Shown: positions 659 through 32,356 of the stretch, piece after piece
Layout of the letters: each line of letters starts with the position of its first letter
How positions within the stretch are numbered: the first letter of the stretch is position 1
Source: an uncultured Ignavibacteriales bacterium
GTDB taxonomy: Bacteria > Bacteroidota > Ignavibacteria > Ignavibacteriales > Ignavibacteriaceae
Length of the DNA stretch: 64,000 nt
Direction of reading: 5' to 3'
Assembly (NCBI GenBank): GCA_963822905.1
Contig: CAWGJF010000002.1
Location: 386,911-450,910 of the forward strand
Program-made: the position numbers and the translations under genes
The notes under the pieces: model-generated
Told to the model about the DNA's origin: nothing
What the model saw: only the letters and a program-made list of their open reading frames with translations
The model's database searches: none

Positions 659-667
659 TAACATTTT

Positions 668-3600: not shown

Positions 3601-3718
3601 TGAAACTATTTGGAATGTAGACAATATTCAAAGTGGTGTTTATCTTGCCAGGATACAAGCAACAAGTACAAATGGTAAATCCGAACAAACAGTAATAAAA
3701 ATTACTGTTATCAAATGA
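668..3718 (+). CDS. Secreted 1016-aa protein: M6 (InhA)-like metalloprotease-fold domain without HExxH, repeat-rich middle, T9SS type-A C-terminal sorting domain
   Basis: N-terminal signal peptide (MKYLNPVFILVLFWVSLSYGQA). M6-like blocks are present: ILAVMVSFQSD, FLIFHAGAGRD, HLGLPDLFD, FLVENRQRD, GSGIVIWHIDE. The last ~85 aa (YNYPNPVYEGTTNIRYYV...IKIFDLAGDYV...SGVYLARIQA...) fit the T9SS CTD pattern. Confidence 0.6.
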   Translation: MKYLNPVFILVLFWVSLSYGQADLSSRTFTSKLNPFPVNQKSLVQIDTLRILAVMVSFQSDRDGTTFGNGKFESIYSQNYGNDIIDPVPHNKLYFESHLLFAKNYFNKVSKNKLTIEYTVLPDTFSVSQTMRNYSPAPGDNDFTPIADFSKEVWTKADQMNPGFSFSNYDLFLIFHAGAGRDVSLPGSIGNERDLPSVYLSENAFKNIYGENYSGIPVSGGSFNIKNSLIMPETESRELESITGTYLFELTINGLLCASIASHLGLPDLFDTETGLSAIGRFGLMDGQGIFAYNGCYPPEPSPWSKIFLRWTEPVTLQPGNYNFNVVTEIAASVSDTVILKVPLNSSEYFLVENRQRDANNDGSKVTYVINGNTTTHTFVKDTTGYYSFDIDSLAGVVTDVDEFDWALPGSGIVIWHIDENVINENISENKINIDKNHRGVDVEEADGIQDIGEKFTTIFGDVVIGEGTDEDFWYSSNSAELYQNRFAKDTRPDTRTYSGANSLITIKDFANIADRMSFKVEYGDSVIKPLYSIQLDSLTEKSYISGIEFDNTSQLFITDVNSTISKYSSDSLISQKFDFSGSKPVVYNSNNVLHLYGIYNDLLNYNISNGVTTDSGNVPVGSNISASPVLRINSLNEPELLLGTNNGSILVYSIGSLPNVAPVFKNSINIDSTFFVQKLAANENYYSAILQSKILSSPSVLITKFIDSDGSEYHFNEEFPTDLSISKDQNGNYYSLVLTSKNNFYLFQSGQLKSQFSINGFAETGKFALVDLKHAGSNSIVLNNGNNIEVYNLTGSMADNFPFVDPEGIGFVGTPLTADFEGDNASEIISLTKDGRIFAIDGGTGKVVPGFPISSGEEVRVTPTIYNSGSKVNLAVINIQNVLSVWSISSVEGKLYWSEENGNPQNTSFVDAAETSNRVNEFFPKNRAYNYPNPVYEGTTNIRYYVSEDSKINIKIFDLAGDYVAELNDNAQGGLDNETIWNVDNIQSGVYLARIQATSTNGKSEQTVIKITVIK

Positions 3719-12348: not shown

Positions 12349-14520
12349 ATGGTTTTAGAAAATCCGAAATATCAAAATATGCTGCCGGATCTTATTTCTG
12401 AGTGCAGGAAAACTTTACCAAAAGTTAATGAAGAATTGATTGGCAAAGCTTTCAACTTTTCTGTTGAAGCGCACAAAAATGATTTACGTGCTTCGGGGGA
12501 ACCATATTTCACACATCCTTATCAAGTCGCAATGGTTATAGCTCAGGAATTCCCACTTGATGATATAACTGTTGTTTGTGGTTTATTGCACGATGTTGTT
12601 GAAGATACTGATTTTGATTTACAACTTCTTTCAAAAGAATTTGGAAATGAGGTTGCAGAAATAGTTGATGGTGTAACTAAAATTAGCGGGATTTTTAAAG
12701 GACAGGATATTACCAAAGCTGAAAATTATAGGAAGATGCTTCTTTCTATGGTTAAAGATGTCAGGGTAATTCTTGTGAAATTTGCCGACAGGCTCCATAA
12801 CATGAGAACATTAGAATTTGTATCTCCCGATAAGCAAAGAAGAATAGCCCAGGAAACTCTTGAAATTTATGCTCCCTTTGCAAACAGATTTGGTCTGGCT
12901 AAAGTAAAATGGGAATTAGAAGATTTATCATTCAAATATCTTAACAGGGAAGCATATGAGGATCTTGTTAGAAAAGTCAAAGGAAGAAGAAAAGAAAGAG
13001 AAGCCTACATTAAAAAGTTTGCAGAACCTATAATAAAAAGAATAGACGAATACAAACTTAAGTATGATTTAAGTGGCAGACCAAAACATCTTTATAGTAT
13101 ATACAGGAAAATGATCAGGAGAAATAAACCTTTTGAAGAAATTTATGATCTCTTTGCAGTGAGAATTATTCTGGAAACTGAAAATAATAATGATTGTTAT
13201 ACAACTCTTGGAATAGTAAACCAGGTGTATTTACCTGTCCCTGATCGTTTTAAGGATTATGTTTCCATTCCAAAAACTAATAACTACCAATCGATTCATA
13301 CAACTGTTGTGGGACCTGAAGGCAGGCTTGTTGAAGTTCAGATAAGAACAAAGAAAATGCACGAAATATCCGAGCGTGGTGTGGCTGCTCACTGGAAATA
13401 TAAAGAGGATAAAAGTACTTCCGACAAAGAATTGGAAAATTGGGTTAACTGGATCCGGGATATTTTTGAAAGTGCTGGTAAAGATGATGTTCGAAAAGAA
13501 TTACTTGAAGATTTTAAACTTAATCTTTATCAGGATGAAATTTATTTATTTACACCAAAAGGTGAATTAAGGAGACTCCCATTATATTCAACGGCAGTTG
13601 ATTTTGCGTTTGAAATACATAGTAAAGTTGGATATCACTGTATCGGTGCAAAAATTAATGGCAGAATTGTTCCTCTCGATACTCCGTTGCACAGCGGTGA
13701 TCAGGTTGAAATTATCACATCAAAGAATCAACATCCGAATAAAAACTGGTTGAAATTTGTTAAGACCCATAAAGCACGTTCTGCAATTAGAAAATGGATG
13801 AATAAAGAAGACGATAAGATTGTACAAAACGGAAAAGAGATCTGGGATAAAAAAATCAAAAAACTCAAATTATCTTTCAATTCTTCTGATGTTTCAAGGA
13901 TTGCCAGGAATTTAAAATTCGAAAATAATCGTCAGTTTTACGGTGCAATAGCACAAGGTGGTGTAAATCTTGATGAAGCATTAATGCCTCAAAAAGAATT
14001 AATTGCAGAAGAACAAGGAAATGTACTTGGTTTTGAAAAGTTTGCAAATATTGCTCGCCAGGATGCCGGTAGTTTACTTGTTGATGGTAGTACCGAAAAA
14101 TTAATGTATGCTTTTGCAAAATGTTGTAATCCAATTCCGGGTGATCCGGTAATCGGATTTATAACTATTGGTGAAGGAATAAAAATTCATCGTAAAACAT
14201 GTAATAACCTTGTTAATCTTTCATCGGTAGATCCAAGTAAATTAATTCCTGTACAATGGCCGAAAACTGAAGGTTCAACATTTGTTGCTGGAATTTCAAT
14301 GAAGGGTGATGACACTCCGGGAATATTAAATGATATAGCTCACACAATTGTTTCTTATCAGAATACTAATATTAAATCAATTAATATCAACACAAATGAT
14401 TCTAACTTTGAAGGAAATGTAACTGTGTATGTTAATGGCCTGGATCATTTAAATAGACTTATTGACCGGTTGAAAAAAATAAAAGGAATTTATACTGTTG
14501 AAAGGTTCGAAAGTAATTAA
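12349..14520 (+). CDS. relA: Bifunctional (p)ppGpp synthetase/hydrolase (RelA/SpoT homolog)
   Basis: HD hydrolase motifs (HPYQVA...LLHDVVEDT), synthetase block (GRPKHLYSIYRKM, DLFAVRII), TGS (IYLFTPKGE...LPLYSTAVDFA) and a C-terminal ACT-like domain. Confidence 0.95.
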   Translation: MVLENPKYQNMLPDLISECRKTLPKVNEELIGKAFNFSVEAHKNDLRASGEPYFTHPYQVAMVIAQEFPLDDITVVCGLLHDVVEDTDFDLQLLSKEFGNEVAEIVDGVTKISGIFKGQDITKAENYRKMLLSMVKDVRVILVKFADRLHNMRTLEFVSPDKQRRIAQETLEIYAPFANRFGLAKVKWELEDLSFKYLNREAYEDLVRKVKGRRKEREAYIKKFAEPIIKRIDEYKLKYDLSGRPKHLYSIYRKMIRRNKPFEEIYDLFAVRIILETENNNDCYTTLGIVNQVYLPVPDRFKDYVSIPKTNNYQSIHTTVVGPEGRLVEVQIRTKKMHEISERGVAAHWKYKEDKSTSDKELENWVNWIRDIFESAGKDDVRKELLEDFKLNLYQDEIYLFTPKGELRRLPLYSTAVDFAFEIHSKVGYHCIGAKINGRIVPLDTPLHSGDQVEIITSKNQHPNKNWLKFVKTHKARSAIRKWMNKEDDKIVQNGKEIWDKKIKKLKLSFNSSDVSRIARNLKFENNRQFYGAIAQGGVNLDEALMPQKELIAEEQGNVLGFEKFANIARQDAGSLLVDGSTEKLMYAFAKCCNPIPGDPVIGFITIGEGIKIHRKTCNNLVNLSSVDPSKLIPVQWPKTEGSTFVAGISMKGDDTPGILNDIAHTIVSYQNTNIKSININTNDSNFEGNVTVYVNGLDHLNRLIDRLKKIKGIYTVERFESN

Positions 14521-14954
14521 TGATTGATACGGTACCATCGACAGAATCAAGAATAATGGCAATTGATTTTGGTGAAAAAAGAATAGGAATTGCACTTACT
14601 GATCCGTTATTAACTTTTGCCTATCCTTATAAAACATTAACCAACGATAATCTTCTTTTTAAAAATCTTGAAAAAATAATTTTTGATAAAAATATTAAAA
14701 AAATTATTTTAGGATTGCCATCAACTTCTAAACCAGCTTCTGCGAAATTGGCAGATAAAATTCTGAATTTTAAAAAAGAATTGGAAAAGAAATTCAAAAA
14801 AGAAATTATTTTATGGGATGAAGAATATACTTCAGTTATTGCACAACAGAGAATTATAGAATCTGTAGCAGGTAAAAAAAAGAGGAAAGACAAAGCATTG
14901 ATTGATCAAAATGCTGCAGCTGTTATTTTACAGGAGTATTTGGATTCCATATGA
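14520..14954 (+). CDS. ruvX: Holliday-junction resolvase-like nuclease RuvX (YqgF)
   Basis: IMAIDFGEKRIGIALTD N-terminal motif, DEEYTS and the ~140-aa size are typical of YqgF. Its start overlaps the rel stop. Confidence 0.9.
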   Translation: MIDTVPSTESRIMAIDFGEKRIGIALTDPLLTFAYPYKTLTNDNLLFKNLEKIIFDKNIKKIILGLPSTSKPASAKLADKILNFKKELEKKFKKEIILWDEEYTSVIAQQRIIESVAGKKKRKDKALIDQNAAAVILQEYLDSI

Positions 14955-15032
14955 TCCGAACGATTCTTTAAAACATTTCATTAACTGATCAAAGTAAGTA
15001 TATAAAATTTAGTAAATTATAGTAATAAAAAA

Positions 15033-15061
15033 TTGACATTAACATTTCAATAATTTATTTT
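15033..15061 (+). promoter_or_regulatory. Candidate sigma70-type promoter for the BMC-H gene pair
   Basis: TTGACA at 15033-15038, a 17-nt spacer, then TATTTT at 15056-15061. A GGGAG Shine-Dalgarno lies at 15085-15089, 7 nt before the ATG at 15097. Confidence 0.35.
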
Positions 15062-15096
15062 ATCGACTAACAATTTTCACTAATGGGAGCACTTCT

Positions 15097-15375
15097 ATGT
15101 CACTTGACGCACTAGGTATGGTGGAAACCAAAGGTTTGGTAGGTTCCATCGAAGCTGCTGATGCAATGGTTAAAGCAGCAAAAGTTGAGCTAATTGGAAA
15201 AGAAACAATTGGCGGCGGTTATGTAACGGTGATGGTTAGAGGTGATGTGGGAGCAGTTAAAGCGGCAACTGATGCCGGAGCTGCCGCAGCACAAAGAGTT
15301 GGTGAATTAGTTTCAGTTCACGTTATTCCTCGGCCACATGCGGAAGTTGAGTCAATCCTTCCAAAAAAGAAATAA
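15097..15375 (+). CDS. Bacterial microcompartment shell protein, BMC-H (PduA/CcmK/EutM-like, single Pfam00936-type domain)
   Basis: 92 aa: [30 protein letters not shown]...[23 protein letters not shown]...VHVIPRPH. This is a canonical BMC-H sequence with the edge Lys (DAMVKAA), a GGG pore loop and the PRPH motif. Confidence 0.92.
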
Positions 15376-15378
15376 ATT

Positions 15379-16050
15379 ATGTCTGATCGTGCCTTAGGTA
15401 TGGTGGAAACCCGCGGGTTGGTGGCATCTATTGAAGCCGCTGATGCTATGCTAAAAGCTGCACAGGTAACACTTGTTGGTAAGGAACGTGCTGATGCAGG
15501 CTTAATGACTATTATTGTTGTTGGTGAAACTGCAGCAGTACAATCGGCAGTCGATGCGGGAGCAGTGGCTGCTTCCAGAATCGGGGAACTTGTTTCCACT
15601 CATATTATTCCAAGACCTGATGATCAAACCACGGAAATTCTTTTTAAAGATAAATTTTCAAAACCCACTGGTAAAAAATCGGTTGTTCAGGATAGGGAAC
15701 AAATAAAGGAGGAAATAAAATCAACCCGGAAAGTAACAAGAGTTGTTAAAAAAGAAAAAGTCAAATCTGAGATTAAACCTGAGATTACAAAATCAATTGA
15801 AGAACCTGAAGAAAGTTCAACTAATACGATTGAGAGATTAAAAAGAGAAGCTCTTGGTAAAAATGCCGTAACAATTGATTTAGAATCACAAGTACTTGCT
15901 GATTTATCAATGAGTGATTTGGAAATTCAGAATGTTCATCAGCTCAGACGCCTTGCAAGAAGTGTTAAGGAATTTCCAATTAAAGGAAGGGAAATTTCTA
16001 AAGCAAACCGAAATCAACTTCTTGATTATTTTAAAGATTTGTTAAAGTAA
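15379..16050 (+). CDS. BMC-H shell protein with ~130-aa C-terminal extension (K/E-rich linker + Rho_N/SAP-like helical motif)
   Basis: aa 1-88: [30 protein letters not shown]...ADAGLMTIIVVGETAAVQSAVDAG...THIIPRPD. A charged low-complexity segment follows. The tail LEIQNVHQLRRLARSVKEFPIKGREISKANRNQLLDYF resembles a Rho N-terminal/SAP-type motif. The ATG lies 3 nt after the stop of the first BMC-H gene. Confidence 0.88.
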   Translation: MSDRALGMVETRGLVASIEAADAMLKAAQVTLVGKERADAGLMTIIVVGETAAVQSAVDAGAVAASRIGELVSTHIIPRPDDQTTEILFKDKFSKPTGKKSVVQDREQIKEEIKSTRKVTRVVKKEKVKSEIKPEITKSIEEPEESSTNTIERLKREALGKNAVTIDLESQVLADLSMSDLEIQNVHQLRRLARSVKEFPIKGREISKANRNQLLDYFKDLLK

Positions 16051-16117
16051 CTCTGTTTTTGTCTCTTCATAATAATCATATCTTAATAAATATTATTTTA
16101 TTAATTTAGCGGTTGAA

Positions 16118-17020
16118 ATGAAACTTAACATTTTTATCGCATCACTAATTTTTTCAATTATTCTTTGGGGATCTATTTCACTTTCGGATGAATACTATGC
16201 CATTATCCAGGTTTCCCCAAAACTAATTAATTTTCCTAAAGGATATACTTCCGGAACCGGACTTCCTGATAAAATTTCAATTCGTGTTAAAGGTAAAGGC
16301 TGGAGATTAGTTTCTGTAAATCTTGGAAGCGATACAGAATATTTAATATCTGTGAGCGACAGCGGAAAACAACTAATTGATGTTTATAATAATCTTAACA
16401 ACAACCGATGGATAAAATCAGATCTCGAAGTAATCGACGTTTCACCTGATACTCTTTCAGTTTTAGTTGAAAAAATTGTTACACGAAAATTGCCTGTAGT
16501 GGCTAGTTTAAATGTAAATTATAGGGAAGGTTTCGGTTTGGCATTACCTGTAAGTCAAAATGTGGATTCAGTTTATATTTCTGGCCCAAAAAGTATGATA
16601 AAAAAAATGAAGCAGGTAAATACTGAAGAATTAAAACTTATAGGTGTTGACAGCAAAACTCTGGTAGATTTAAATCTTCCTCAGCGGGGCGGATTTAAAT
16701 ACAATTTAGATAAAATAGAAGTCAAATTGGATGTTCAAAGAATTGTTGAAAAACAGTTTGATGAAATCAATGTTGATGTGTTTGATGTTCCACCTGATAG
16801 AGAAGTAGTTTTGCTTCCTAATAAAATCTCATGCAGCGTACGTGGTGGTATTCAGGTCTTGGGCAAAATGACGAAAGATCAATTTAAAAGTTTTGTCTAT
16901 TATCATGAAGTTGTTAACGATACTTTAGGTAGTGTGATTCCAAATATAGAAATTCCGGATAATACCTCTTTGCTTTATATTAAACCAGAAAGGCTCCGTT
17001 ATATCATCAAAACATTTTAG
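16118..17020 (+). CDS. YbbR-like (CdaR-type) repeat domain protein, membrane-anchored
   Basis: N-terminal TM helix, then repeated ~80-aa beta modules with V..P..V.V.V patterns typical of YbbR repeats. Assigned by pattern only. Confidence 0.5.
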   Translation: MKLNIFIASLIFSIILWGSISLSDEYYAIIQVSPKLINFPKGYTSGTGLPDKISIRVKGKGWRLVSVNLGSDTEYLISVSDSGKQLIDVYNNLNNNRWIKSDLEVIDVSPDTLSVLVEKIVTRKLPVVASLNVNYREGFGLALPVSQNVDSVYISGPKSMIKKMKQVNTEELKLIGVDSKTLVDLNLPQRGGFKYNLDKIEVKLDVQRIVEKQFDEINVDVFDVPPDREVVLLPNKISCSVRGGIQVLGKMTKDQFKSFVYYHEVVNDTLGSVIPNIEIPDNTSLLYIKPERLRYIIKTF

Positions 17021-17097
17021 AAAGTTACTTTTCTGCTCAAACTTTCACTATTTTATATAAATAAATTATCTCATTTATCCATTTATTGAGTGAATTC

Positions 17098-17715
17098 ATG
17101 TTTATATCTTTCGAGGGGATAGATTTCTGCGGCAAATCAACACAGATAGATCTTCTAAGCGATTATTTAACCGAAAAAAATAAAAAAGTTGAAGTTGTAC
17201 GTGAACCGGGAAGTACAGAAATTTCAGACAAAATCAGGGCTATTTTATTAGATAAAAAAAATGATAAAATGTTTGGAGAGTCTGAGTTGTTTTTATTTTC
17301 AGCTAGTCGTGCTCAATTAGTACGGGAAAAAATTCGTCCTTATCTCCTAAAAGATTATTATGTAATTTCAGACCGGTTTCTTGATTCTTCCACTGCTTAC
17401 CAGGGATATGGAAGAGGAGTTCCGCTTGATGTAATTGAGGTTATTCATAATCTGGCAATTGGAGATACTTTACCGGATTTAACATTTTATATGGATGTCC
17501 CTGTTGGTGTTGCAAATGAAAGAAAGAAAAAACAATCAAAGGGTAAACTTGATAGAATTGAACAGAGTGATATTGATTTTTACAATAGGGTCCGGAATGG
17601 TTATCTGGAGATAGCGAAACAAGAGGGGCGTGTAAAAATAATTGATGGTACTCAAACAATTGAAATTATCAGAAACCAAATAATAACAGAAGTTGAATTA
17701 TTTCAAGTAAGGTAA
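17098..17715 (+). CDS. tmk: Thymidylate kinase
   Basis: MFISFEGIDFCGKSTQ P-loop, the DRFLDSSTAYQG motif and a LID region. The ATG at 17098 is preferred over the TTG at 17086. Confidence 0.92.
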   Translation: MFISFEGIDFCGKSTQIDLLSDYLTEKNKKVEVVREPGSTEISDKIRAILLDKKNDKMFGESELFLFSASRAQLVREKIRPYLLKDYYVISDRFLDSSTAYQGYGRGVPLDVIEVIHNLAIGDTLPDLTFYMDVPVGVANERKKKQSKGKLDRIEQSDIDFYNRVRNGYLEIAKQEGRVKIIDGTQTIEIIRNQIITEVELFQVR

Positions 17716-17723
17716 GTGGTAAT

Positions 17724-19367
17724 ATGAAAAAAAATATTAAATGGATTTTATTGTCAGGGGCTTTGTTGTTAGTGATTTTAGGCTTTACGTTAAGCGAGGG
17801 AGACATTTATTTTGAAATTTCAAAGAACATTGATTTATTTGGAAGAGTATACAAGGAAATCACTTTTAATTATGTTGAAGAGATAAACCCGGAACAATTT
17901 ATGCGTGCTGGAATTGAAGGCATGCTTTCCTCACTCGATCCATATACAATTTTTATTGATGAAAAGAAAAAAGATGATATAGATTTGATTACCGAAGGGA
18001 AATATGGTGGAATTGGTGTTTCTATTGGTGTACGTGGAGAAGATGTTACAATTGTTGAGGTAATGGATGGTTATTCAGCACAGAAACAGGGAATTGAAGT
18101 CGGCGATATTTTAATTGAGGCATCAGGTGTGAAAATTTCTGCCGACAATGTTGATGAAATTTCATCTCTTGTTAAAGGCGAACCAGGCACTACCGTTAAT
18201 GTCAAAATTTTGAGGGATGATATGCTTGATACTCTATCATTCAATATTATTCGTGAAGAAGTAATTATAAAAAATATTACTTACTACGGTTTTTATCCTG
18301 AGAACAGTAATAATGTATATTTGAAACTTTCCAATTTCAGCAGATCTGCCGCAGATGAACTTAAATATGCTTTAAAAGAATTAAAGGACCAGAAGGAAAT
18401 TAAATCAATTATTCTGGACCTGAGAGGAAATCCTGGCGGTTTACTTGATATAGCAGTGGATATTTGCGATAAATTTCTTAAAAAAGATTTACTCATAGTT
18501 TCTACAAAGGGAAGAATTGCAACGACTGAAAAACAATACAAATCTGTTGAAGAACCTCTGGTTGGAGATGCAAAATTGGTAGTTCTTATTAATGGTGGCA
18601 GTGCCTCTGCATCCGAAATTGTTGCCGGGGCAATGCAGGATCATGATCGTGGAGTTTTACTTGGAACAAAATCTTTTGGGAAAGGATTAGTTCAAACAAT
18701 AATTCCATTGAGCTACAATACTTCACTAAAAATTACGACAGCAAAATATTATACACCAAGTGGAAGGTGTATCCAGAAAATTGATTATTCAGAAAATAAT
18801 GATGTAATTGTTGATGATAGTTTAAGTCTGTCAACTGAGTTTCATACTGATAATAAAAGAGAAGTTCATTCAAAGGGTGGAATCACACCTGATACAACTG
18901 TTCAATATATAATTGAAGGAGATCTGACGAAAGAGCTATTAGCCAAGGGAATGTTTTTTAAATTTGCAAACTCATTTAGTTACTCACACCCTGAATTTGA
19001 TTTTAATAAGATTAATGATTCAAAAATTCTGAAAGAGTTTGAAAATTATCTTGATGAACAGAAATATGAATATAAATCCCGTGCTGAAAAAGAAGTAGAT
19101 CAATTGATAGGAGATATTGCGGATAAGGATAATAATATTTCAGATCATCTTAAATCGTTAAGATCGCAGTTAGGAAATCTGTATAAAAGTGAGTTCAAAA
19201 TTTATAATGATGAGATTTTAAGAGAAATCAAGATTGAACTGGCTGGAAGATTTATTGGGTCTGATGGTAAAGTTATTGAACAATTACAATTTGATCCACA
19301 GGTTCAAACCGCGATAAATGTTTTAAACGATCAGAAATCATATAACAGGCTTTTACATATTCATTAA
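17724..19367 (+). CDS. S41 family C-terminal processing peptidase with PDZ domain
   Basis: N-terminal TM/signal, PDZ (GIGVSIG...V.EVMDGYSAQKQGIEVGDILIE), LDLRGNPGG, the GGSASASEIVAGA catalytic Ser block, and GTKSFGKG. Confidence 0.9.
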   Translation: MKKNIKWILLSGALLLVILGFTLSEGDIYFEISKNIDLFGRVYKEITFNYVEEINPEQFMRAGIEGMLSSLDPYTIFIDEKKKDDIDLITEGKYGGIGVSIGVRGEDVTIVEVMDGYSAQKQGIEVGDILIEASGVKISADNVDEISSLVKGEPGTTVNVKILRDDMLDTLSFNIIREEVIIKNITYYGFYPENSNNVYLKLSNFSRSAADELKYALKELKDQKEIKSIILDLRGNPGGLLDIAVDICDKFLKKDLLIVSTKGRIATTEKQYKSVEEPLVGDAKLVVLINGGSASASEIVAGAMQDHDRGVLLGTKSFGKGLVQTIIPLSYNTSLKITTAKYYTPSGRCIQKIDYSENNDVIVDDSLSLSTEFHTDNKREVHSKGGITPDTTVQYIIEGDLTKELLAKGMFFKFANSFSYSHPEFDFNKINDSKILKEFENYLDEQKYEYKSRAEKEVDQLIGDIADKDNNISDHLKSLRSQLGNLYKSEFKIYNDEILREIKIELAGRFIGSDGKVIEQLQFDPQVQTAINVLNDQKSYNRLLHIH

Positions 19368-20458: not shown

Positions 20459-21028
20459 ATGCCAAAACTTAATTTAGATTACATTCTCAGAAACCGTCTG
20501 CCGGTTACAATCTTCGTAATCTTAAGTTCATTTGCACTTACTTATTTTGCGTCCCGGGCTGAAAGGGACGGAGTTGGATACAAACCTGACCAACCGATTA
20601 ATTATTCTCATAAATTACATGCCGGTGATATGAAAATTGATTGCCAGTATTGTCATATTGGTGTTGAAAAATCTAGACATGCAATGGTTCCTCCGCTTGC
20701 TACTTGCATGAATTGTCATACTGTTGCAAGAAAAGATAAACCTGATATAATGAAATTGACTGATTATTATAATGAAGCAAAAGCACTTGAGTGGAAAAGA
20801 ATACATAAAGTTCCCGATTATGCTTACTTCAATCATAGTGTACATATTAATAAAGGTGTGGATTGTGTATCCTGTCATGGAGAAATAAGACAAATGGAAA
20901 AGGTCGGACAGATGAATTCGTTTACAATGGCCAATTGCTTAAAATGTCATCGTAATACTCATGAAAATCTTCCCTATATAAAAGATGTTAAAGCTGGTCC
21001 TGAATATTGTTTTGCTTGTCACAGATAA
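20459..21028 (+). CDS. actA: Alternative complex III pentaheme cytochrome c subunit ActA
   Basis: N-terminal TM anchor and five CxxCH motifs (CQYCH, CMNCH, CVSCH, CLKCH, CFACH). It is the first gene of the act cluster. Confidence 0.9.
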   Translation: MPKLNLDYILRNRLPVTIFVILSSFALTYFASRAERDGVGYKPDQPINYSHKLHAGDMKIDCQYCHIGVEKSRHAMVPPLATCMNCHTVARKDKPDIMKLTDYYNEAKALEWKRIHKVPDYAYFNHSVHINKGVDCVSCHGEIRQMEKVGQMNSFTMANCLKCHRNTHENLPYIKDVKAGPEYCFACHR

Positions 21029-21043
21029 TTAGAATTTAAATCA

Positions 21044-21223
21044 ATGAACAGAAAAAAATTTTTTTCAACGATAGGAATTACGGCAATAGGTTACATGATT
21101 ACAATTTCATTTTCGAAAATTCCTTTTGTAAGTAAAATATTGAATAATAAACCAGCTGGAGTTTCTGTTAAAATTAATCCTCTTGCTGTAAGGAGAGAAA
21201 AACCAGGTAAAAAGAATGTCTGA
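21044..21223 (+). CDS. Possible small (59-aa) ORF with Tat-signal-like N-terminus between actA and actB
   Basis: ATG at 21044; MNRKKFFSTIGITAIGYMITISF...; the TGA at 21221-21223 overlaps the actB ATG (21216). It is not in the supplied track because it is under 60 aa. Coding status is unproven. Confidence 0.3.
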   Translation: MNRKKFFSTIGITAIGYMITISFSKIPFVSKILNNKPAGVSVKINPLAVRREKPGKKNV

Positions 21224-22451
21224 TCTTACAGATAAAAAAATAAATTCTTCAGTACAAAAACCTGATGCGGATTACTGGCGAACTTTCGAAGAGTTGCATA
21301 ACGATTCTCATTTTATTGAAACGAGTCAAAATGAATTTGCTGATGGAGTTACTGATGATTTTAGTGCTTCGGATATGTCTTCTATTTCCAGGAGAAAATT
21401 TTTAGCACTCCTCGGAGCTTCTGCTGCACTTGCCGGAACTGCCTGCACTGATTACCGTGACAGGGGCGAAATCATTCCTTATAATAAAAAACCTGAAGAA
21501 ATTATTGTTGGAAAAGCTAATTACTATGCGTCAACATGTACAGCTTGTGCAAATTCCTGTGGTATTCTGATTAAAACAAGGGAAGGCCGCCCGATAAAGT
21601 TAGATGGAAATCCTGATCATCCTGTTTCTAAAGGCAAAATTTGTGCTCAGGGTCAGGCAAGCATAATGGATTTATATAATCCTGATAGGTTGAAGAATCC
21701 AAAAAAGAAATTGAGCAATAGATTTGTTGAATACAACTGGAAAGATGCTGATAAGGAAATTATTGAAGCACTAATCAATGCGGGAGATAAAGAAATTGCG
21801 ATTGTAACAAACCAAATTACATCTCCAACTTTCTTCAAAGTATTGGGTGACTTCAAATCGAAATATCCTACAATGAAGCTTTACAGTTATGATCAATCCT
21901 GGCAGGAAACGAGAAACAGAGCCTGGCAAAAATGTTATGGTGAGGGTTTGTTCACTGCAATAAAATGGAATGAAGCTAAAATTATTGTTTCACTTGATGG
22001 AGATTTTCTTGGTGAATCCGAAAATAAAATTGAAAACGTAAGATTATTTTCAGAAGGAAGAGATGTAATGAGTAAAGCCTTCAACAGATTATATGCTGTT
22101 GAAGGAAACCTTTCTGTAACCGGAATGAATGCTGATTATAGGTTGAGACTTCGTTCTGACGAACAGCAGAAATTTGTTTTAGCTTTAGTTCATGATATTT
22201 CGGCAAAAAGCGGGATCAATATTGGAATAAATACAGGTGGATATTCACTAAAATCCATCAGTGATGAATTTAATTTGGATTTAAAAACACTGAATGCTTT
22301 GGTAAATGATTTGGTTGAGAATAAGGGCAAAGCTTTCATTTATGCCGGCAATCATTTACCTGAATCAGTACATTTAATAGTAAATTATTTAAATGAGGTA
22401 TTAGGTAATTCAAAATTATATGAGTTAGAAAATTCGAAAATTAATATTTAA
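21216..22451 (+). CDS. actB: ActB (ACIII molybdopterin-like/FeS subunit), fragment 1 of 3: Tat signal and N-terminal MopB-like part
   Basis: SRRKFLALLGASAALAGTA twin-arginine signal; Cys cluster CTACANSCGILIKTREGRPIKLDGNPDHP...GKICAQG. It ends at a TAA created by a frame change (see findings). Confidence 0.85.
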   Translation: MSDLTDKKINSSVQKPDADYWRTFEELHNDSHFIETSQNEFADGVTDDFSASDMSSISRRKFLALLGASAALAGTACTDYRDRGEIIPYNKKPEEIIVGKANYYASTCTACANSCGILIKTREGRPIKLDGNPDHPVSKGKICAQGQASIMDLYNPDRLKNPKKKLSNRFVEYNWKDADKEIIEALINAGDKEIAIVTNQITSPTFFKVLGDFKSKYPTMKLYSYDQSWQETRNRAWQKCYGEGLFTAIKWNEAKIIVSLDGDFLGESENKIENVRLFSEGRDVMSKAFNRLYAVEGNLSVTGMNADYRLRLRSDEQQKFVLALVHDISAKSGINIGINTGGYSLKSISDEFNLDLKTLNALVNDLVENKGKAFIYAGNHLPESVHLIVNYLNEVLGNSKLYELENSKINI

Positions 22452-22494
22452 TCCTCTGTCATCTGTTCAAGATTTTAAAAGTCTTGTCTCAAAA

Positions 22495-23532
22495 ATGAAG
22501 AGCAATTCTGTTGGAGTTGTTATTCATTTAAATACAAATCCAGTTTATAATTTACCGAAGAATCTGGATTATGAAAATTCTCTTTCGAATGTCAATACTG
22601 TAATTACTGTTACAGATACTGATTCCGAAACTTCTGAAGCAGGGAACTATATTTTACCCTCGCATCATATGCTTGAATCATGGGGAGATTCATATAATCG
22701 TTCTGATTTTTATTCTCTTCAACAGCCGGTAATTGCTCCCTTGTATGACACGCGTCAACCCGAAGCAATTCTTCTTACTTGGATTGTTGGTCATCAAGAT
22801 GCGTACAGTGATAAAATTTATCATCAGTATTTAATGAATAATTGGGAGAAAAATATCTATCCAGTAACCGTATCGACCCTTCCATTCAAACAATTTTGGT
22901 ACGGTGCTTTACACGATGGAGTAAGCTATTCAAATGAAAAATCGAATAGTTCATTATCATTTAATTCATCAGCATTGAATGAATTAAAAAAGGTAAACCG
23001 AAACAATGGATTTGTTCTTCAGCTTAAAGAAAGTTATTCATTACGTGATGGAAGATTTGCAAACAATGGTTGGCTGCAGGAACTTCCGCATCCGGTAAGT
23101 AAAATGACATGGGATAATTACGCAGCTATTTCGCCAAATTCAGCAGATGAACTTGGGGTTAGTGATTCTGATGTAATCGAAATTACATCGGGTGGTACAA
23201 GCTTTAAAATTCCTGCTCTGGTTCAACCAGGACTTGCTGATCAAACAATTGTAATTGATTTGGGATACGGAAGAAGAAATGCCGGGATAGTTGGTTCAAA
23301 TGTTGGTTTCAATTCAAATGAGTTGCTTAAATCTTCAGATTCTCTTTTCCAAATGTTATACAGTGGAGTTGAAGTAAATAAAACAGGTGACTACTACAAA
23401 CTGGTTGCCGCACAAACAGTTTATGAATTCGATAAAGGAATTAAAAAAGATCTTCCGGAAAAAAGGGGAATAATTCGTGAAGGAACAGTTGCTCAGTATT
23501 TAAAAGAACCCGGAATTCTTAAAAGAAAATGA
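22495..23532 (+). CDS. actB: ActB fragment 2 of 3 (continuation of the MopB-like domain)
   Basis: This frame is open from 22429 (..FNPLSSVQDFKSLVSKMKSNSVGVVIHLNTNPVYNLP) and continues fragment 1 with no need for its own start codon. The frame is +1 relative to fragment 1. Confidence 0.85.
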   Translation: MKSNSVGVVIHLNTNPVYNLPKNLDYENSLSNVNTVITVTDTDSETSEAGNYILPSHHMLESWGDSYNRSDFYSLQQPVIAPLYDTRQPEAILLTWIVGHQDAYSDKIYHQYLMNNWEKNIYPVTVSTLPFKQFWYGALHDGVSYSNEKSNSSLSFNSSALNELKKVNRNNGFVLQLKESYSLRDGRFANNGWLQELPHPVSKMTWDNYAAISPNSADELGVSDSDVIEITSGGTSFKIPALVQPGLADQTIVIDLGYGRRNAGIVGSNVGFNSNELLKSSDSLFQMLYSGVEVNKTGDYYKLVAAQTVYEFDKGIKKDLPEKRGIIREGTVAQYLKEPGILKRK

Positions 23533-23590
23533 AGAAGAATCTTTAATAAGCGTAAATCCTCCTATTCCTTATCCAGGAGTAAAATGGGGG

Positions 23591-24304
23591 ATGTCGATTG
23601 ATTTAAATAAATGTACCGGTTGCGCGGAATGTGTCGTTGCATGCAATGTTGAAAATAATATTCCAATTGTTGGCAAGGATCAGGTTGATAAGGGACGTGA
23701 GATGCAGTGGTTACGAATTGATCGTTACTATTCCGGCTCACCTGAGGAACCAAATGTTGTTAACCAGCCGATGCTGTGTCAGCATTGTGATAATGCACCT
23801 TGCGAAAATGTTTGCCCGGTTGCTGCAACAACTCACAGTCCTGATGGGCTGAACCAAATGATTTATAACAGGTGTGTTGGAACAAGATATTGCTCAAACA
23901 ACTGTCCTTATAAAGTTAGAAGATTCAACTTTTTTAATTTCAGAGATCACTTCCGTGATAGTTTCCAGGAAAATCCGGTGTTTGCGTTACTTGCAAATCC
24001 TGAAGTTACTGTTCGATCAAGAGGAGTGATGGAAAAATGTACTTTTTGTATTCAAAGAATCTCAGAAGCTAGAGCAGATGCAACAAGACAAAGCAGGCAG
24101 ATTAAAGGATCAGATGTTAGAACAGCATGTCAGGATGCTTGTGCAAGTAACGCAATTAATTTTGGAGACATTAATGATAAGGAAAGTGAGTTCCATAAAT
24201 ACAGAAATCATGAATTAGGATATTATGTTCTTGAAGAATTGAATGTTGTCCCCAATGTTACTTATTTCGCCAAACTCAGAAATACTCATTCGGAGGATGT
24301 TTAG
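23591..24304 (+). CDS. actB: ActB fragment 3 of 3 (4Fe-4S ferredoxin-like B2 domain)
   Basis: The frame is open from 23504 (...[40 protein letters not shown]). Further Cys clusters: [30 protein letters not shown]. The frame is +1 relative to fragment 2. Confidence 0.88.
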
Positions 24305-25674
24305 TGGAAGTTGATTATTCAACCGAAACTCCGGTTGTTGCCGGTAGATTATCATTAGCTGAAATCGAGGAAATGGTTGCAAGACCACTCGATACAAAGC
24401 CTGATAAAAAGTTTTATATAGCGTTATCAATTTCCGGCTCAGCATTGTTATTCGGTGCGATTTGTCTTTTATTTTCTTTTTATTACGGTGTTGGCTTGTG
24501 GGGAAATAATCAGCCTGTTGGTTGGGGATTTCCAATTGTAAATTTTGTGTTCTGGGTTGGTATTGGTCATGCAGGAACACTTATCTCAGCGATTTTATTT
24601 TTGCTCAGACAAAAATGGAGAAATGGTATTGCACGATTTGCGGAAGCAATGACCATCTTTGCTGTGATTTGTGCTGCTTTATTTCCGGCGATACACGTCG
24701 GACGTCCCTGGTTAGGAGGCTATTTATTTCCTTATCCGAACCAGCATGGTCTCTGGATTAATTTTAATTCTCCTCTAATTTGGGATGTATTTGCTGTTTC
24801 AACATACTTCACTGTTTCACTTGTTTTCTGGTATGTTGGTTTGATCCCGGATTTTGCAACACTACGAGATCGTACTACTTCAAAAATTAAAAAGATTATT
24901 TATTCTGTTTTCAGTCTTGGATGGAGACATTCAAACAGACACTGGCAACATTATGAAAAAGCTTATGTGATACTTGCTGGTTTTGCAACTCCACTTGTTT
25001 TATCTGTTCACACAATTGTAAGTTTTGATTTTGCTGTATCAATTCTTCCCGGCTGGCATTCAACTATATTTCCACCTTACTTTGTTGCCGGAGCAATTTT
25101 TTCTGGGTTTGCAATGGTAGTTACAGTTCTTGTTGTTGTCCGCAAAATATTTGATTTGCAGAATTTGATAACGATGGATCACCTTGAAAAAATGAACAAG
25201 GTTATTATTGCTACAAGTATGATGGTAGGCTATTCTTACGGTGTGGAATTTTTTATTTCATGGTATAGTGGTGCTCCGGTTGAACAATTTATTTTTATAA
25301 ACCGGGCATTTGGACCTTATGCCTGGGCGTACTGGGTAATGGTTTCCTGCAATGTTTTCATTCCGCAATTATTCTGGTTTAAGAAAATACGAAGATCAAT
25401 TCCGGCAATGATGGTAATTGTTATTTTAGTGAATGTAGGAATGTGGTTTGAGAGATTTGTAATTGTTGTAACATCTTTACACAGAGATTTTTTACCTTCA
25501 AGTTGGGGAATGTTTATCCCGACTATATATGATGCAGGAATTCTAATTGGAAGTTTTGGACTATTTTTTACATTAGTAATTTTATTTACAAAAGCTTTGC
25601 CCGTTGTTTCTATTGCAGAAATTAAAAGTGTCAGCGAAGGTGCCCAACCAGTACATCACGGAGGTCACGAATAA
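24304..25674 (+). CDS. actC: ActC, NrfD/PsrC-like quinol-interacting membrane subunit of ACIII
   Basis: GTG start overlapping the actB stop. It is a polytopic protein with NrfD-like motifs ([36 protein letters not shown]). Confidence 0.88.
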
Positions 25675-26837
25675 TGAGTGACAAAAAGATTTTCGGATTG
25701 GCTGCACTATTCAAAGATCCAAATTCGATCATTGCTGCTGCTAAAAAAGTCAGTAGTGAAGGTTTTACTAAATGGGATGTCAACTCTCCTTATCCCGTTC
25801 ATGGGATGGATAAAGCAATGGGAATGAAACCATCAAGACTTGGTTTTGTTACATTGTTCTTTGGGTTAAGCGGAACAACAATAGCACTTTTGTTTATGTG
25901 GTGGACAATGTCTGTTGATTATCCATTAGTAATTGGAGGGAAGCCCTTTTTTGCATTACCATCATTCATTCCTGTAACATTTGAAGTAACAGTATTACTT
26001 GGAACGGTATTCACAATCATTACGATGTTTGCATTGTTTTTTGGTTTACCTTCAAATTCACACCCGGTACATGATACGAATTATATGAAAAAAGTTTCCG
26101 TTGATCATTTCGGTATTGTGATTGAATCATCTGATCCGAAATTTGATGAAGAAAAAATAAAAAGCTTATACAGTTCACTAGGTGCAGTTCTTACAGAGGT
26201 AATTTATTTCCCTGAGAAGGAACCAACAAAAGTTTTTGAACCCCGGTTTATTATGTTTTTGATTCTTGTTGCAGTAGTAGTATCAGGAGCAACATATTTT
26301 ACTCTTAATAAATTTATGTATATGCTTCCTTATAACTGGATGGATGATCAGGCTAAAATTGTTCCCCAGTCAAAGAACGATTTTTTTGCCGATGAAAGAG
26401 GAATGAGAATGCCGGTTGAGGGAACTATAGCCAGGGGATTTCTTCCTTATCCATTTTTAGGTGAGAAAGAACCAAAAGAAGTTTTATCAAATCCTTATTT
26501 ACCTACTAAGGAAAACCTGGAATTAGGTAAAAGAAAGTTTTTGACTTTTTGCAGTCCTTGTCACGGAAATTATGCCGATGGTGATAGTCGGTTACATGGA
26601 CAATTTCCAAGTCCACCAACATTGCATTCCACAAGGGCAAGAAATTTTAGTGATGGAATGATTTACCATATAATTACAAACGGACAAAATGCAATGCCTT
26701 CTTATGCTTCGCAAGTTACACGAAAAGAAAGATGGGCGATAATTAATTATATAAGAGTTTTGCAAAGAGCAAAAGATGCAACTGATTCTGATGTTGCGCA
26801 GTTAAAACTTGAGAAAAGTTCAAATGCAGGAAACTGA
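25674..26837 (+). CDS. actD: Fused ActD-ActE (DUF3341-like membrane subunit + monoheme cytochrome c)
   Basis: The N-terminal half is ActD-like (IFGLAALFKDPNSIIAAAKKV...WDVNSPYPVHGMD, two TM helices). An extra TM follows, then a class-I cytochrome c domain (CSPCHG ... MPSYASQ). Confidence 0.8.
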   Translation: MSDKKIFGLAALFKDPNSIIAAAKKVSSEGFTKWDVNSPYPVHGMDKAMGMKPSRLGFVTLFFGLSGTTIALLFMWWTMSVDYPLVIGGKPFFALPSFIPVTFEVTVLLGTVFTIITMFALFFGLPSNSHPVHDTNYMKKVSVDHFGIVIESSDPKFDEEKIKSLYSSLGAVLTEVIYFPEKEPTKVFEPRFIMFLILVAVVVSGATYFTLNKFMYMLPYNWMDDQAKIVPQSKNDFFADERGMRMPVEGTIARGFLPYPFLGEKEPKEVLSNPYLPTKENLELGKRKFLTFCSPCHGNYADGDSRLHGQFPSPPTLHSTRARNFSDGMIYHIITNGQNAMPSYASQVTRKERWAIINYIRVLQRAKDATDSDVAQLKLEKSSNAGN

Positions 26838-28014
26838 AATTAAATATCAAAAAAAGGAATTACCCGGGACTCTCTCCAAACTGGGTTTAGGTTTGTTGGT
26901 AATAGGAATTATCCTTGGTGTATTAAGCTTTTTTGTTGATCACTCAAGGGCAGTTTTTAATTATCTTCTTTCATATACATTTCTGATTAGCATTGGCGTT
27001 GGCGCATTATTTCTGATTGCACTTGAATATGTCGCCGGTGCTGACTGGAGTGTTCCAATCAGAAGGGTAGTTGAATTTTTTGCTGCAATTGTTCCGTTTC
27101 TTGCAATATTGGTGATTCCGCTGTTGTTCAATGTTCATGATATTTTTCATTGGTCGCATGCAGATGTAGTTGCAAAAGATAAAATTCTGCAGGGTAAGGC
27201 TCCTTATTTAAATATTCCATTTTTTATTATCAGGGTTTTTTTATTTATAGGATTATGGTCATTATTTTATTACCTGTTTACAAGGAATTCTAAAAAGCAG
27301 GATAATTCAGGAGACCAGCTGCTTACTAAAAAGAATATAAAACTATCTGCGATTTTTATTCCTCTGTTTGCCATTACAATTACATTAACTTCAGTTGATT
27401 TTCTAATGAGTATTACACCTCATTGGTTCTCAACAATTTTTGGTGTTTATTATTTCTCAGGATCAGTAGTTGCTGCTTTAGCTGCAGTAACACTTGCCAC
27501 AGTGTTGTTAAAAGAAAAAGGATTTTTGCATCCAAGAATGACAAATGATCACCTCTATAGTTTAGGTGGTTTGATGTTTGCATTTGTTAATTTCTGGGCA
27601 TACATAGCCTTCTCGCAGTTTTTGTTGATCTGGTATGCGAATCTTCCTGAAGAAACTTTTTGGTTTATGCAAAAGTGGCATGGAAGCTGGGCTATATTTT
27701 CAATTGGATTAATTGTGATTCATTTTTTGGTTCCATATATCGCATTAGTTTCTCAGCCATCTAAAATGAATCCTAAAACACTAAAGTTTATTTCTATCTG
27801 GTTATTGTTTGCACATTTGTTTGATTTATTCTGGCTTGTTATGCCAAGCATTCCTTCATTAGCTGACGGTTATTCGTTTAGCTGGATTGATTTGGTATTT
27901 CCAATTTCTGTTACTGGTATTGTTTTACTTGTTTTTAACATGAAGGCAAAAAAAGAAAATCTCGTTCCCATTGGTGATCCAAAATTAAAACGCGGTCTCG
28001 ATTTTCATTTATAA
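26824..28014 (+). CDS. actF: ActF, second NrfD-like membrane subunit of ACIII
   Basis: Polytopic membrane protein in the position following actE. The ATG at 26824 is preferred over the TTG at 26809. Confidence 0.8.
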   Translation: MQETEIKYQKKELPGTLSKLGLGLLVIGIILGVLSFFVDHSRAVFNYLLSYTFLISIGVGALFLIALEYVAGADWSVPIRRVVEFFAAIVPFLAILVIPLLFNVHDIFHWSHADVVAKDKILQGKAPYLNIPFFIIRVFLFIGLWSLFYYLFTRNSKKQDNSGDQLLTKKNIKLSAIFIPLFAITITLTSVDFLMSITPHWFSTIFGVYYFSGSVVAALAAVTLATVLLKEKGFLHPRMTNDHLYSLGGLMFAFVNFWAYIAFSQFLLIWYANLPEETFWFMQKWHGSWAIFSIGLIVIHFLVPYIALVSQPSKMNPKTLKFISIWLLFAHLFDLFWLVMPSIPSLADGYSFSWIDLVFPISVTGIVLLVFNMKAKKENLVPIGDPKLKRGLDFHL

Positions 28015-28031
28015 AATATTTAAGTACGAAC

Positions 28032-28952
28032 TTGAATCAATTATTTCAAAAAATAAAAAACGACTTTAAAAGTAATACAGGAGCAGTATTTGGATTATTA
28101 TACCCATATGTTCTTGTCATAATTGTAATTATTGGATTGATATATATAACAAACCTTAATCAGATTTCACGACAGACTGTTCCACCAATTATTCCAGATA
28201 GTACAGTTGTGCCGAAAGACCTTGAAGTAAAGAAGGCAAGAACAATTCCACCGGTTAATGTTTTTGAAATAAGTAAGCCAACACGGGAATTAATTCAAAA
28301 AGGTCAAAAAACATTTACAACAATTTGTGCAAGTTGTCATGGTGAAAATGGAACCGGAACCGGTCCGGCATCCATTGGCTTGAATCCTGCTCCAAGGAAT
28401 TTTACCAAGGTAGAAAACTGGGTAAACGGCAGGACTATTTCTGGAATGTACACAACACTTCAGGAAGGGATTCCTAACAGCGCCATGATATCATATGATT
28501 TCTTGACTCCTGAAGAGAGATTTGCAGTAATTCATTATATCCGCAGTACATTTATGCAGAATCCTCCTCAGGATTCGCATGATGATCTTGCAGCGTTGGA
28601 CCAGATTTATAACCTGTCATCCGGAATGGAACTCCCGGCACAAATTCCGGTTGCTGCTGCAATGGATATAATATTAAAGGAAAATCAGGGAAAAATAAAT
28701 AAACTGAATTCTGTGTATGGAATGATTAATAATAGCCGGACTTCATCTGCTGTTTTATTTAAAAATATTACTTCTGATTGTAAACTTGCATTATCAGCAT
28801 TTATAAGATCAGATTCATGGAATGCAAACAAGAATTCATTTGAACACTTTGTTACTATCAATGTAAATCAAAATGGATTTAACGGAAAAATTTTTAATCT
28901 TACAACTTCACAATGGGATGAACTTTATAACTTTATTAAACAAGTTATTTGA
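28032..28952 (+). CDS. Membrane-anchored monoheme c-type cytochrome with ~150-aa C-terminal domain of unknown function
   Basis: TTG start, N-terminal TM helix, CASCHGENG heme site and a distal Met region (IPNSAMISY). Confidence 0.75.
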   Translation: MNQLFQKIKNDFKSNTGAVFGLLYPYVLVIIVIIGLIYITNLNQISRQTVPPIIPDSTVVPKDLEVKKARTIPPVNVFEISKPTRELIQKGQKTFTTICASCHGENGTGTGPASIGLNPAPRNFTKVENWVNGRTISGMYTTLQEGIPNSAMISYDFLTPEERFAVIHYIRSTFMQNPPQDSHDDLAALDQIYNLSSGMELPAQIPVAAAMDIILKENQGKINKLNSVYGMINNSRTSSAVLFKNITSDCKLALSAFIRSDSWNANKNSFEHFVTINVNQNGFNGKIFNLTTSQWDELYNFIKQVI

Positions 28953-28970
28953 GATATACGAGATGAGAAG

Positions 28971-29762: not shown

Positions 29763-29774
29763 AGGTGATTTTAT

Positions 29775-32056: not shown

Positions 32057-32065
32057 GGAAAAGAA

Positions 32066-32356
32066 ATGGAAAACCCGGAACATATTGAACAATCACATGG
32101 CTACGGAATATATATTTTAGTGTGGCTTGCCCTATTAACATTAACAGCAATAACAGTGGTGGTTGCGGGTGTTGATATAGGCAAATTCACAATTGCAACT
32201 GCTTTAATAATTGCAGCGGTTAAAAGTTATCTTGTTTTAACAGTTTTTATGCATTTGAAAAGTGAGAGCAAAGTATTTAGGGTTTTTCTTGCTGTGGCTC
32301 TTTTCTTCCTGTTGATATCATTCACTTTAATGTTTGCTGATTATTCTTTCAATTAA
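32066..32356 (+). CDS. Cytochrome c oxidase subunit IV (small prokaryotic type)
   Basis: 96 aa with three hydrophobic helices, the KSYLVLTVFMHLK motif, and a position after subunit III. Confidence 0.75.
   Translation: MENPEHIEQSHGYGIYILVWLALLTLTAITVVVAGVDIGKFTIATALIIAAVKSYLVLTVFMHLKSESKVFRVFLAVALFFLLISFTLMFADYSFN

Follow-up and report, generated by a model that had tools for sequence, protein, structure and literature searches.

A tailed BMC-H shell protein of the FRAG1 type in Ignavibacteria and its conserved C-terminal domain with a predicted helix-extended-helix fold

According to the catalogue of bacterial microcompartments (BMCs) by Sutter et al. (2021, Nat Commun 12:3809, PMC8217296), the FRAG ("fragmented") BMC types have shell genes scattered over up to six sites, are without recognisable enzymes and gave no matches to hidden Markov models (HMMs) of encapsulation peptides. 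These types are widespread in uncultured lineages and were flagged as open questions by the catalogue authors. FRAG1, which comprises 57 loci and is "most prominent in Ignavibacteria", has a BMC-P triplet belonging to the green, grey and orange clades and encoded elsewhere in the genome, often a PduS/T pair, and a BMC-H pair with an ordered extension "analogous to EutK" (PMC8217296, Supplementary Data 2), the extension being given without fold, motif or function. Here we describe a BMC-H gene pair in a 64,000-nucleotide stretch of DNA (hereafter the window) from an uncultured Ignavibacteriales bacterium (assembly GCA_963822905.1, contig CAWGJF010000002.1, positions 386,911 to 450,910). The second gene of the pair encodes a shell protein with a C-terminal tail of about 135 residues. 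This pair is the FRAG1 BMC-H pair, because taxon, pairing, motifs and extension all fit: the window holds a BMC-H pair with an extension, its shell genes lie apart from signature enzymes in the 64 kb, and the lineage belongs to the class Ignavibacteria. New here are the fold assignment of the end of the tail, a second conserved motif, a linker acting as spacer only, the breadth of conservation and an invariant housekeeping synteny.

Outside FRAG1, the closest described counterparts of the tailed protein are EutK and PduK. Without EutK, Eut compartments are static and confined to the poles, and the basic C-terminal domain of this minor shell component "could potentially bind to nucleotides"; a role like that of ParB or McdAB has been proposed for it (PMC12487888). 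The comparison with carboxysome McdAB, which concerns the spreading of an organelle along the nucleoid, was drawn in the same study and is for our protein a functional analogy only. Loss of PduK likewise leaves well-formed Pdu compartments at the poles, and this minor hexamer's C-terminal extension, located on the outward concave face, controls compartment distribution (PMC9132943). Like EutK, the tailed FRAG1 protein consists of one BMC domain and a linker that leads to a small helical domain at the C-terminus, which carries positive charge and is suspected of binding nucleic acid. Comparison between the two proteins revealed that (i) the tails are unrelated in sequence, as the EutK_C family (PF16365) was never matched at E ≤ 10 by the window tail or 128 relatives and the alignment of the NCBIfam EutK model is confined to residues 5–97 of the window protein; (ii) the FRAG1 protein has a much longer linker and an extra motif; and (iii) its gene lies in a housekeeping array, whereas that of EutK lies in an inducible catabolic operon. 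No EutK chain was found among the fold neighbours of the end domain, and the difference between its predicted fold and that of EutK_C implies independent acquisition. The PduK extension has been portrayed as flexible, possibly containing a metal site; unlike the FRAG1 tail, it has no terminal domain of this kind, and the two share no homology.

The original prediction for this DNA, which was made from the sequence alone, knew of no described BMC whose hexamers display nucleic-acid-binding tails. This claim of novelty fails in view of the FRAG1 catalogue entry and of the tail-bearing precedents EutK and PduK. Searches of the literature found no follow-up on FRAG1 and no link between a BMC shell protein and a SAP domain, and the IALB locus tags of cultured-strain orthologs had no match in the tree files of the catalogue.

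The BMC-H pair and the anatomy of the tail

The features of the pair and its upstream region are as follows, in window coordinates.

15033–15061, forward strand: promoter-like TTGACA-17-TATTTT with 10 of 12 consensus matches, in the 142-nucleotide gap between ruvX and the first BMC-H gene
15097–15375, forward strand: plain 92-residue BMC-H paralog ("basal" hexamer), PF00936 at 103 bits, standard edge motifs, pore loop IGGG
15379–16050, forward strand: tail-bearing BMC-H gene, an open reading frame of 223 residues plus stop
15391–15618, forward strand: BMC domain (residues 5–80), PF00936 at 90.3 bits, E = 7.8e-26, profile positions 1–75 of 75
15643–15816, forward strand: variable K/E/P-rich linker (residues 89–146), 50% charged, net charge +5, probably disordered
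15817–15858, forward strand: motif 1, S-T-N-T-I-E-R-L-K-R-E-A-L-G (residues 147–160), a predicted short amphipathic helix
15859–15903, forward strand: variable spacer (residues 161–175), identity 0.21, pLDDT (predicted local distance difference test) below 50
15904–16047, forward strand: C-terminal 48-residue basic domain (residues 176–223), predicted helix-extended-helix, with the signature NVHQLRRxAR...FPIKGREIS(K/R)ANRxxLLDYF

The tailed protein contains a single full-length PF00936 domain in canonical order, far above the gathering cut-off of 24.5 bits, and is by this criterion a BMC-H protein. In an alignment of 40 Ignavibacteria orthologs, on which the identity and invariance figures below rest, residues K26, P78, P80, D81 and Q83 of its BMC domain are invariant, as is R79, the arginine of PRP; K26 and R79 are the retained edge residues. 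Its interface motif is PRPD(D/E)Q, invariant in the orthologs, whereas PRPH is found in the basal hexamers, the upstream paralog among them; in its edge motif KAAQ stands in place of KAAN, the lysine of D-A-M-x-K-A-A being retained. Sutter et al. call the partner BMC-H "standard", which implies that the tailed one is non-standard. The original prediction also pointed to an altered pore loop. The loop is indeed ADAG, as against IGGG in the upstream paralog, but ortholog loops include ADAG, VQGG, ITGG, ALAG, TDPA and others, so that ADAG is no fixed feature. No other BMC gene, BMC-P gene or signature enzyme was found within the 64-kb window.

The tailed gene starts 3 nucleotides after the stop codon of the upstream paralog; therefore, the two genes are probably co-transcribed and translationally coupled. 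The sequence GGGAG stands 7 nucleotides ahead of the ATG at 15097, and no terminator-like site was found 3' of the pair. Promoter-like consensus sites are no commoner in the region than in shuffled sequences, which makes the site at 15033–15061 weak evidence of a promoter.

As had been proposed, the BMC-H domain is fused to a charged linker and a tail; the linker is not conserved, and the tail ends in a small domain predicted to be ordered. The K/E-rich low-complexity string of the original prediction, KVTRVVKKEKVKSEIKPEITKSIEEPEE, was confirmed in the tail, and nucleotides 15910–16047 encode MSDLEIQNVHQLRRLARSVKEFPIKGREISKANRNQLLDYFKDLLK, codon 15910 being a methionine; the C-terminal string was thus correctly read, apart from a trivial start one codon after the coordinate given for it. 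The mean pairwise identities of the 40 orthologs divide the protein sharply: 0.76 in the BMC domain (residues 1–88), 0.18 in the linker, 0.77 in motif 1, 0.21 in the spacer and 0.75 in the C-terminal domain, the last on par with the BMC domain. This pattern points to strong purifying constraint on motif 1 and the end domain, as opposed to a freely drifting linker.

For the wider family, an HMM of the last 48 residues was searched against 1.84 billion representative proteins clustered at 50% identity. From the resulting diverse set, the top 150 representatives were checked for a BMC domain, 129 were scored for linker and motifs, and 128 were aligned and scanned with Pfam. Across this family the linker ranges from 47 to 332 residues and from −102 to +18 in net charge. 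Because its sequence and charge are so variable, only the presence of a linker is conserved, not its K-rich character, and the same charge spread rules out the K-rich linker as a nucleic-acid-binding element. Huge acidic linkers, with lengths up to 332 residues and net charges down to −102, occur in the distant members P0200 and P0221 (loci L086 and L087), P0128, P0139 and P0269; an acidic tether of this sort beside a basic end domain could be an autoinhibitory or anti-aggregation element. A further linker motif, approximately [S/E/D]-L-F-[D/E], is located about 10–25 residues ahead of motif 1 in 49 of the 129 representatives under a loose pattern (among them P0128, P0139, P0143, P0207, P0265, P0043, P0051, P0109 and P0118), but does not occur in the window protein or in its nearest relatives.

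Residues T150, I151, R153, L154, E157 and A158 of motif 1 are invariant in the 40 orthologs. The motif was modelled by AlphaFold as a helix at low confidence (pLDDT about 56–61); distant members show variants such as HLxKLREEA, and a strict regular expression for the motif matches 54 of the 129 representatives. The end domain has 23 of 48 positions invariant within Ignavibacteria. In the 128 aligned representatives, 12 of the 48 remain invariant (V11, R15, A18, R19, F24, P25, I26, G28, R29, I31, S32 and A34, in domain numbering), and conservation reaches 90% or more at N10, H12, L14, N35, R36, L39 and F43. The highly conserved residues at its surface are mostly basic or polar (R15, R19, R29, S32, N35 and R36); the net charge is +4 in the window protein, with a family median of +3. 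In nearly all 129 representatives, the domain is located at the extreme C-terminus or a few residues from it.

Predicted fold of the C-terminal domain

AlphaFold2, run on an alignment of the 48 residues, gave a model of the end domain with a mean pLDDT of 89.6, in which helices at domain residues 3–7 and 11–20 are followed by an extended segment (residues 21–28) and by helices at residues 29–33 and 36–47. A Foldseek search of this model against 350,542 PDB chains ranked Rho first (9ff7_A; template modelling (TM) score 0.64, root mean square deviation 2.3 Å, 45 columns, E = 2.4), and two further Rho entries were among the PDB matches. In the BFVD database, Rho_N-annotated phage and viral neighbours took ranks 2, 18, 36, 44 and 45 (TM 0.61–0.73), and SAP-domain neighbours took ranks 30 and 43, the first with a TM score of 0.60. 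Rho_N was also the commonest sub-threshold Pfam family, with matches in 26 of 128 relatives (best E = 0.0014) against 10 for the next family; the inspected matches scored 12–16 bits and covered profile positions 1–16 to 1–18 only. SAP appeared below threshold in 3 of the 128 relatives, at 13–17 bits over profile positions 2–17. In addition, a profile search of the PDB aligned residues 3–28 of Thermotoga maritima Rho to helix 1 (E = 0.69).

The domain resembles Rho_N (PF07498) and SAP (PF02037) in its length of about 45 residues, in its order of helix, extended loop with glycine, and helix, and in the L-x-x-L-R-x-x-A pattern of its first helix. It differs from them in that (i) its loop (FPIKGREIS) is 3–5 residues longer; (ii) it is located at the C-terminus and not before a Rho CSD; and (iii) its signature elements NVHxLR, FPIxGR and SKANR are family-specific. 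Several weak, independent signals thus agree, and the modelled end domain likely has a helix-extended-helix fold of the Rho_N/SAP kind. The likeness is supported at the level of fold only and does not extend to Pfam family membership.

Several results weigh against this assignment. The five AlphaFold models span pLDDT values of 68–90, and only two of them exceed 80. All Foldseek E-values are above 0.6 (about 0.7–2.4), high because the query has only 48 residues. The gathering thresholds of PF07498 (24.9 bits) and PF02037 (23.9 bits) were not reached, and the window protein was without a match to either family even at E ≤ 10; the Rho_N and SAP matches of its relatives, all below these cut-offs, cover helix 1 only (domain residues 5–20, in register). 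The same Pfam comparison gave no Rho_N or SAP match in 32 close orthologs. Against Pfam and NCBIfam together, the window tail yielded no Rho_N, SAP or EutK_C match and noise only (HSP9_HSP12, RfaH and YbdK).

Profile searches of the PDB with the 81-residue and 48-residue alignments returned nothing significant, the top matches being ribosomal eS25, through the K-rich spacer, and class II fumarases. Foldseek with the 81-residue model gave noise dominated by its floppy N-terminal part. When the end-domain profile was compared by hhalign with a profile of Rho residues 1–47, built from 100 gammaproteobacterial Rho sequences, P values were 0.014–0.038 with both profiles of very low diversity; 21 of 200 column shuffles reached the observed score, and that of a reversed control was identical. 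A rho gene for a lineage-matched Rho_N profile was sought in the examined DNA, and none was found.

These figures would fit the view that the Rho_N/SAP resemblance is coincidental, the end domain being a small family-specific helical module unrelated to helix-extended-helix domains, so that nothing could be inferred from that fold: no match reaches a Pfam threshold, hhalign does no better than column shuffles, the PDB profile search is without a significant match, the Foldseek E-values are high, and small three-helix folds recur convergently. We nevertheless consider coincidence unlikely, since the four independent weak signals agree on both family and register. Rho stands first among all PDB chains searched, Rho_N and SAP domains recur among the BFVD matches, Rho_N has more matches than any other Pfam family, with alignments that begin at profile position 1 and at the first part of the domain, and the N-terminus of T. 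maritima Rho aligns to the same helix 1. The Rho_N/SAP-like tail of the original prediction is supported as a predicted fold and not as a Pfam match. The conservation of the tail among orthologs runs counter to the outcome that was to refute the prediction.

A separate resemblance was seen in the loop region. Domain residues 19–31 (window about 15958–15996), with the pattern R-S-x-E-x-F-P-I-K-G-R, resemble R-A-V-E-N-F-P-I-S-G-R at residues 34–46 of class II fumarases (PDB 6s43 and others). We judged this RxxENFPIxGR match (E = 0.04 over 13 residues) to be a chance short match.

By Pfam's own split, the RNA-binding element of Rho is the adjacent CSD domain (PF07497) and not Rho_N. Since RNA binding in Rho is done by the CSD, a Rho_N-like fold alone implies no nucleic-acid binding. 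PF07497 was not found in the tailed protein, which the end domain closes. Any binding of nucleic acid by the end domain is purely inferred.

Distribution and gene neighbourhood

A search with the tail only (residues 90–223) recovered 347 proteins, nearly all of 208–233 residues with PF00936; the named ones come from metagenome-assembled genomes (MAGs) of Ignavibacteria. In a scan of one genome per GTDB species, a tailed BMC-H relative is encoded in 191 species-level genomes, so that the fusion seen in the window is indeed present in other genomes. The statements on gene neighbourhood below rest on the best 80 of these 191 loci, all of which are from MAGs of the class Ignavibacteria, either of Ignavibacteriaceae or Melioribacteraceae or, in some cases, with no label beyond "Bacteroidetes bacterium". 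At E ≤ 1e-3 the end-domain HMM matched 512 clusters, and at E ≤ 1e-10 it matched 262. A BMC domain is present in 115 of the top 150 end-domain representatives, and the remaining 35 are mostly short fragments; on these sequences, the end domain looks specific to BMC-H proteins. Among these 35, P0195 (257 residues) has a highly divergent BMC-like N-terminal domain that was missed by phmmer. P0174 (258 residues) has a signal- or transmembrane-like N-terminus and an unrelated globular segment joined to motif 1 and the end domain, and is possibly an assembly chimera or a rare alternative architecture.

The pair is embedded in an array of co-directional genes (relA/spoT, ruvX, BMC-H, tailed BMC-H, ybbR-like, tmk and ctpB; window 12349–19367, forward strand). 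The detected genes of this array are colinear and co-directional in all 80 best loci, where RuvX was found in 72, BMC-H in 76, YbbR in 77, Tmk in 74 and CtpB in 70. Missing genes are mostly at contig ends, and one lineage, L022, has a different upstream neighbour. Distant members, with tailed proteins of 309 and 467 residues, retain the same neighbour genes. A plain BMC-H gene is directly upstream of the tailed gene in 76 of the 80. An artefactual fusion by frameshift is ruled out by the 191 genomes and the 80 colinear loci. The embedding in a housekeeping array, not in an inducible catabolic operon, suggests vertical inheritance and makes constitutive expression possible.

One could go further and regard FRAG1 as a constitutive, class-wide "core" organelle, not a catabolic one, with its shell coupled to nucleic acid by six Rho_N/SAP-like domains per tailed hexamer. 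The fixed position of the pair beside relA, ruvX, tmk and ctpB, with neither cargo enzymes nor encapsulation peptides to be recognised, would fit a housekeeping role in nucleic-acid or nucleotide metabolism, and the organelle could be a nucleoid-anchored or RNA-associated compartment. We regard this proposal as a long shot.

Other features of the window lie outside the array. A respiratory block (20459–35085, forward strand) encodes a cytochrome c7-like protein and ActB, NrfD/ActC and ActD of alternative complex III, followed by cytochrome c, SCO1/SenC, COX1, COX3, a small membrane open reading frame (32066–32356), COX2 and a UbiA-family prenyltransferase, which is probably heme O synthase. 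The genes from cytochrome c to UbiA are a caa3-type oxidase cluster. The ActB-like subunit (molybdopterin/Fe-S) of alternative complex III, at 21216–24304 on the forward strand, is split into open reading frames of 411, 345 and 237 residues by frameshifts near 22440 and 23505. A single open reading frame of 1028–1032 residues is present in loci L001, from a close relative, and L004; tblastn gave 84–91% identity over frames 3, 1 and 2, and the split gene is either a pseudogene or the product of assembly indel errors. Features of type IX secretion, on the forward strand at 50–3718 and 35389–38343, comprise a fragment resembling PorV, which lies at the edge of the window, together with two proteins of about 1000 residues with Por_Secre_tail C-terminal sorting domains. 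They fit the Bacteroidota/Ignavibacteriota lineage.

Proposed role of the tailed hexamer

We propose that the tailed BMC-H protein is an external tether or positioning adaptor of the FRAG1 compartment, a reading for which we see about an even chance on the sequence evidence. The protein would be a minor hexamer of a FRAG1-type (shell-gene-only) compartment in Ignavibacteria, and its BMC domain would co-assemble into facets made mostly of the plain BMC-H encoded 3 nucleotides upstream. The tight pairing with the basal gene, with its 3-nucleotide gap and its recurrence in 76 of the best 80 loci, fits the role of a minor component. In solved shells, the C-termini of BMC-H proteins are on the concave face, which faces the cytosol, as is established and has been restated (PMC9132943); the FRAG1 tails would therefore project outward. 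Each hexamer would extend six flexible charged linkers of about 90 residues, tens of nanometres into the cytosol, and each linker would bear the amphipathic helix (TIERLKxEALG) and the small basic helix-extended-helix domain. Most likely, this module would anchor the compartment from outside to a partner in the cell that is polyanionic or conserved, and by analogy with EutK and PduK in the Eut and Pdu systems, the docking would keep compartments dispersed and inherited. PhaM, which tethers polyhydroxybutyrate granules to the nucleoid, is a further functional analogy only. McdAB and PhaM are separate adaptor proteins, whereas the putative FRAG1 tether is built into a shell subunit, and no homology is expected.

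The opposite orientation is assumed when the tail is taken as a luminal scaffold that is directed inward, organises or condenses cargo like CsoS2 or CcmM, and so supplies the encapsulation that FRAG1 otherwise seems to be missing. The FRAG loci, without recognisable encapsulation peptides or enzymes, call for an unconventional way of packaging, and the tail, with six copies in each hexamer, is both long and multivalent and has two conserved motifs. However, the BMC-H termini are on the outward concave face in solved shells (PMC9132943), the linker, with its variable length and a charge from +18 to −102, is unlike scaffold repeats, and the tail is without repeated motifs. We consider such a scaffold very improbable.

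For the tether itself, nucleoid DNA or RNA is the leading candidate ligand, because of the invariant basic surface and the SAP-like fold, although we hold it at somewhat less than an even chance. Against a tether of this kind, in addition to the restriction of RNA binding in Rho to the CSD, stand the hugely acidic linkers of many family members (net charge to −102), whose charge would push nucleic acid away or shield the basic domain. A point against the proposed reading as a whole is that the BMC-P triplet needed for closed shells, sought within the 64-kb window only, is not present there.

A protein partner is nearly as likely, because the surface is unusually invariant, Rho_N is not the RNA binder of Rho and many linkers are acidic. 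The tail would then be a protein–protein adaptor, in which the end domain, the TIERLK helix or both bind a conserved protein and serve recruitment or shell assembly. The helix-extended-helix domains of the LEM type indeed bind a protein (BAF) and not DNA. In the FRAG1 family, the invariance of 23 of 48 positions, including many surface residues, would sooner be looked for in an interface with a particular protein than in DNA binding without specificity, and the confinement of the domain to BMC-H proteins is what an interaction peculiar to BMCs would produce. The predicted amphipathic helix of motif 1 is short, like those that serve in shell–cargo contacts, acidic linkers are compatible with protein docking, and the partner of the PduK tail has likewise been proposed to be "other intracellular elements" (PMC9132943). 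On the other side, no conserved candidate partner gene lies beside the pair in the best 80 loci, where the neighbours are housekeeping genes; FRAG genomes have no encapsulation-peptide HMM matches (PMC8217296); and motif 1 was not docked on the end domain by AlphaFold. We hold the protein adaptor at clearly less than an even chance, close behind the nucleic-acid tether. Its partner could be, for example, another shell component of FRAG1 (the BMC-P triplet or PduT), an oxidoreductase like PduS, a positioning ATPase resembling ParA/McdA or an element of the cytoskeleton.

Of all FRAG1 components, only the tailed hexamer has a feature that would point outside the shell, and across at least 191 species its end domain is as well conserved as the shell domain. 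The fold assignment, the basic invariant surface and the second helix make the function of FRAG1 experimentally approachable. If the tailed hexamer is a tether, it would be the third independently evolved positioning tail of a BMC-H protein, after those of EutK and PduK; this would argue for built-in positioning adaptors as a general design principle of BMCs, and the 48-residue domain would provide a compact module for anchoring synthetic shells.

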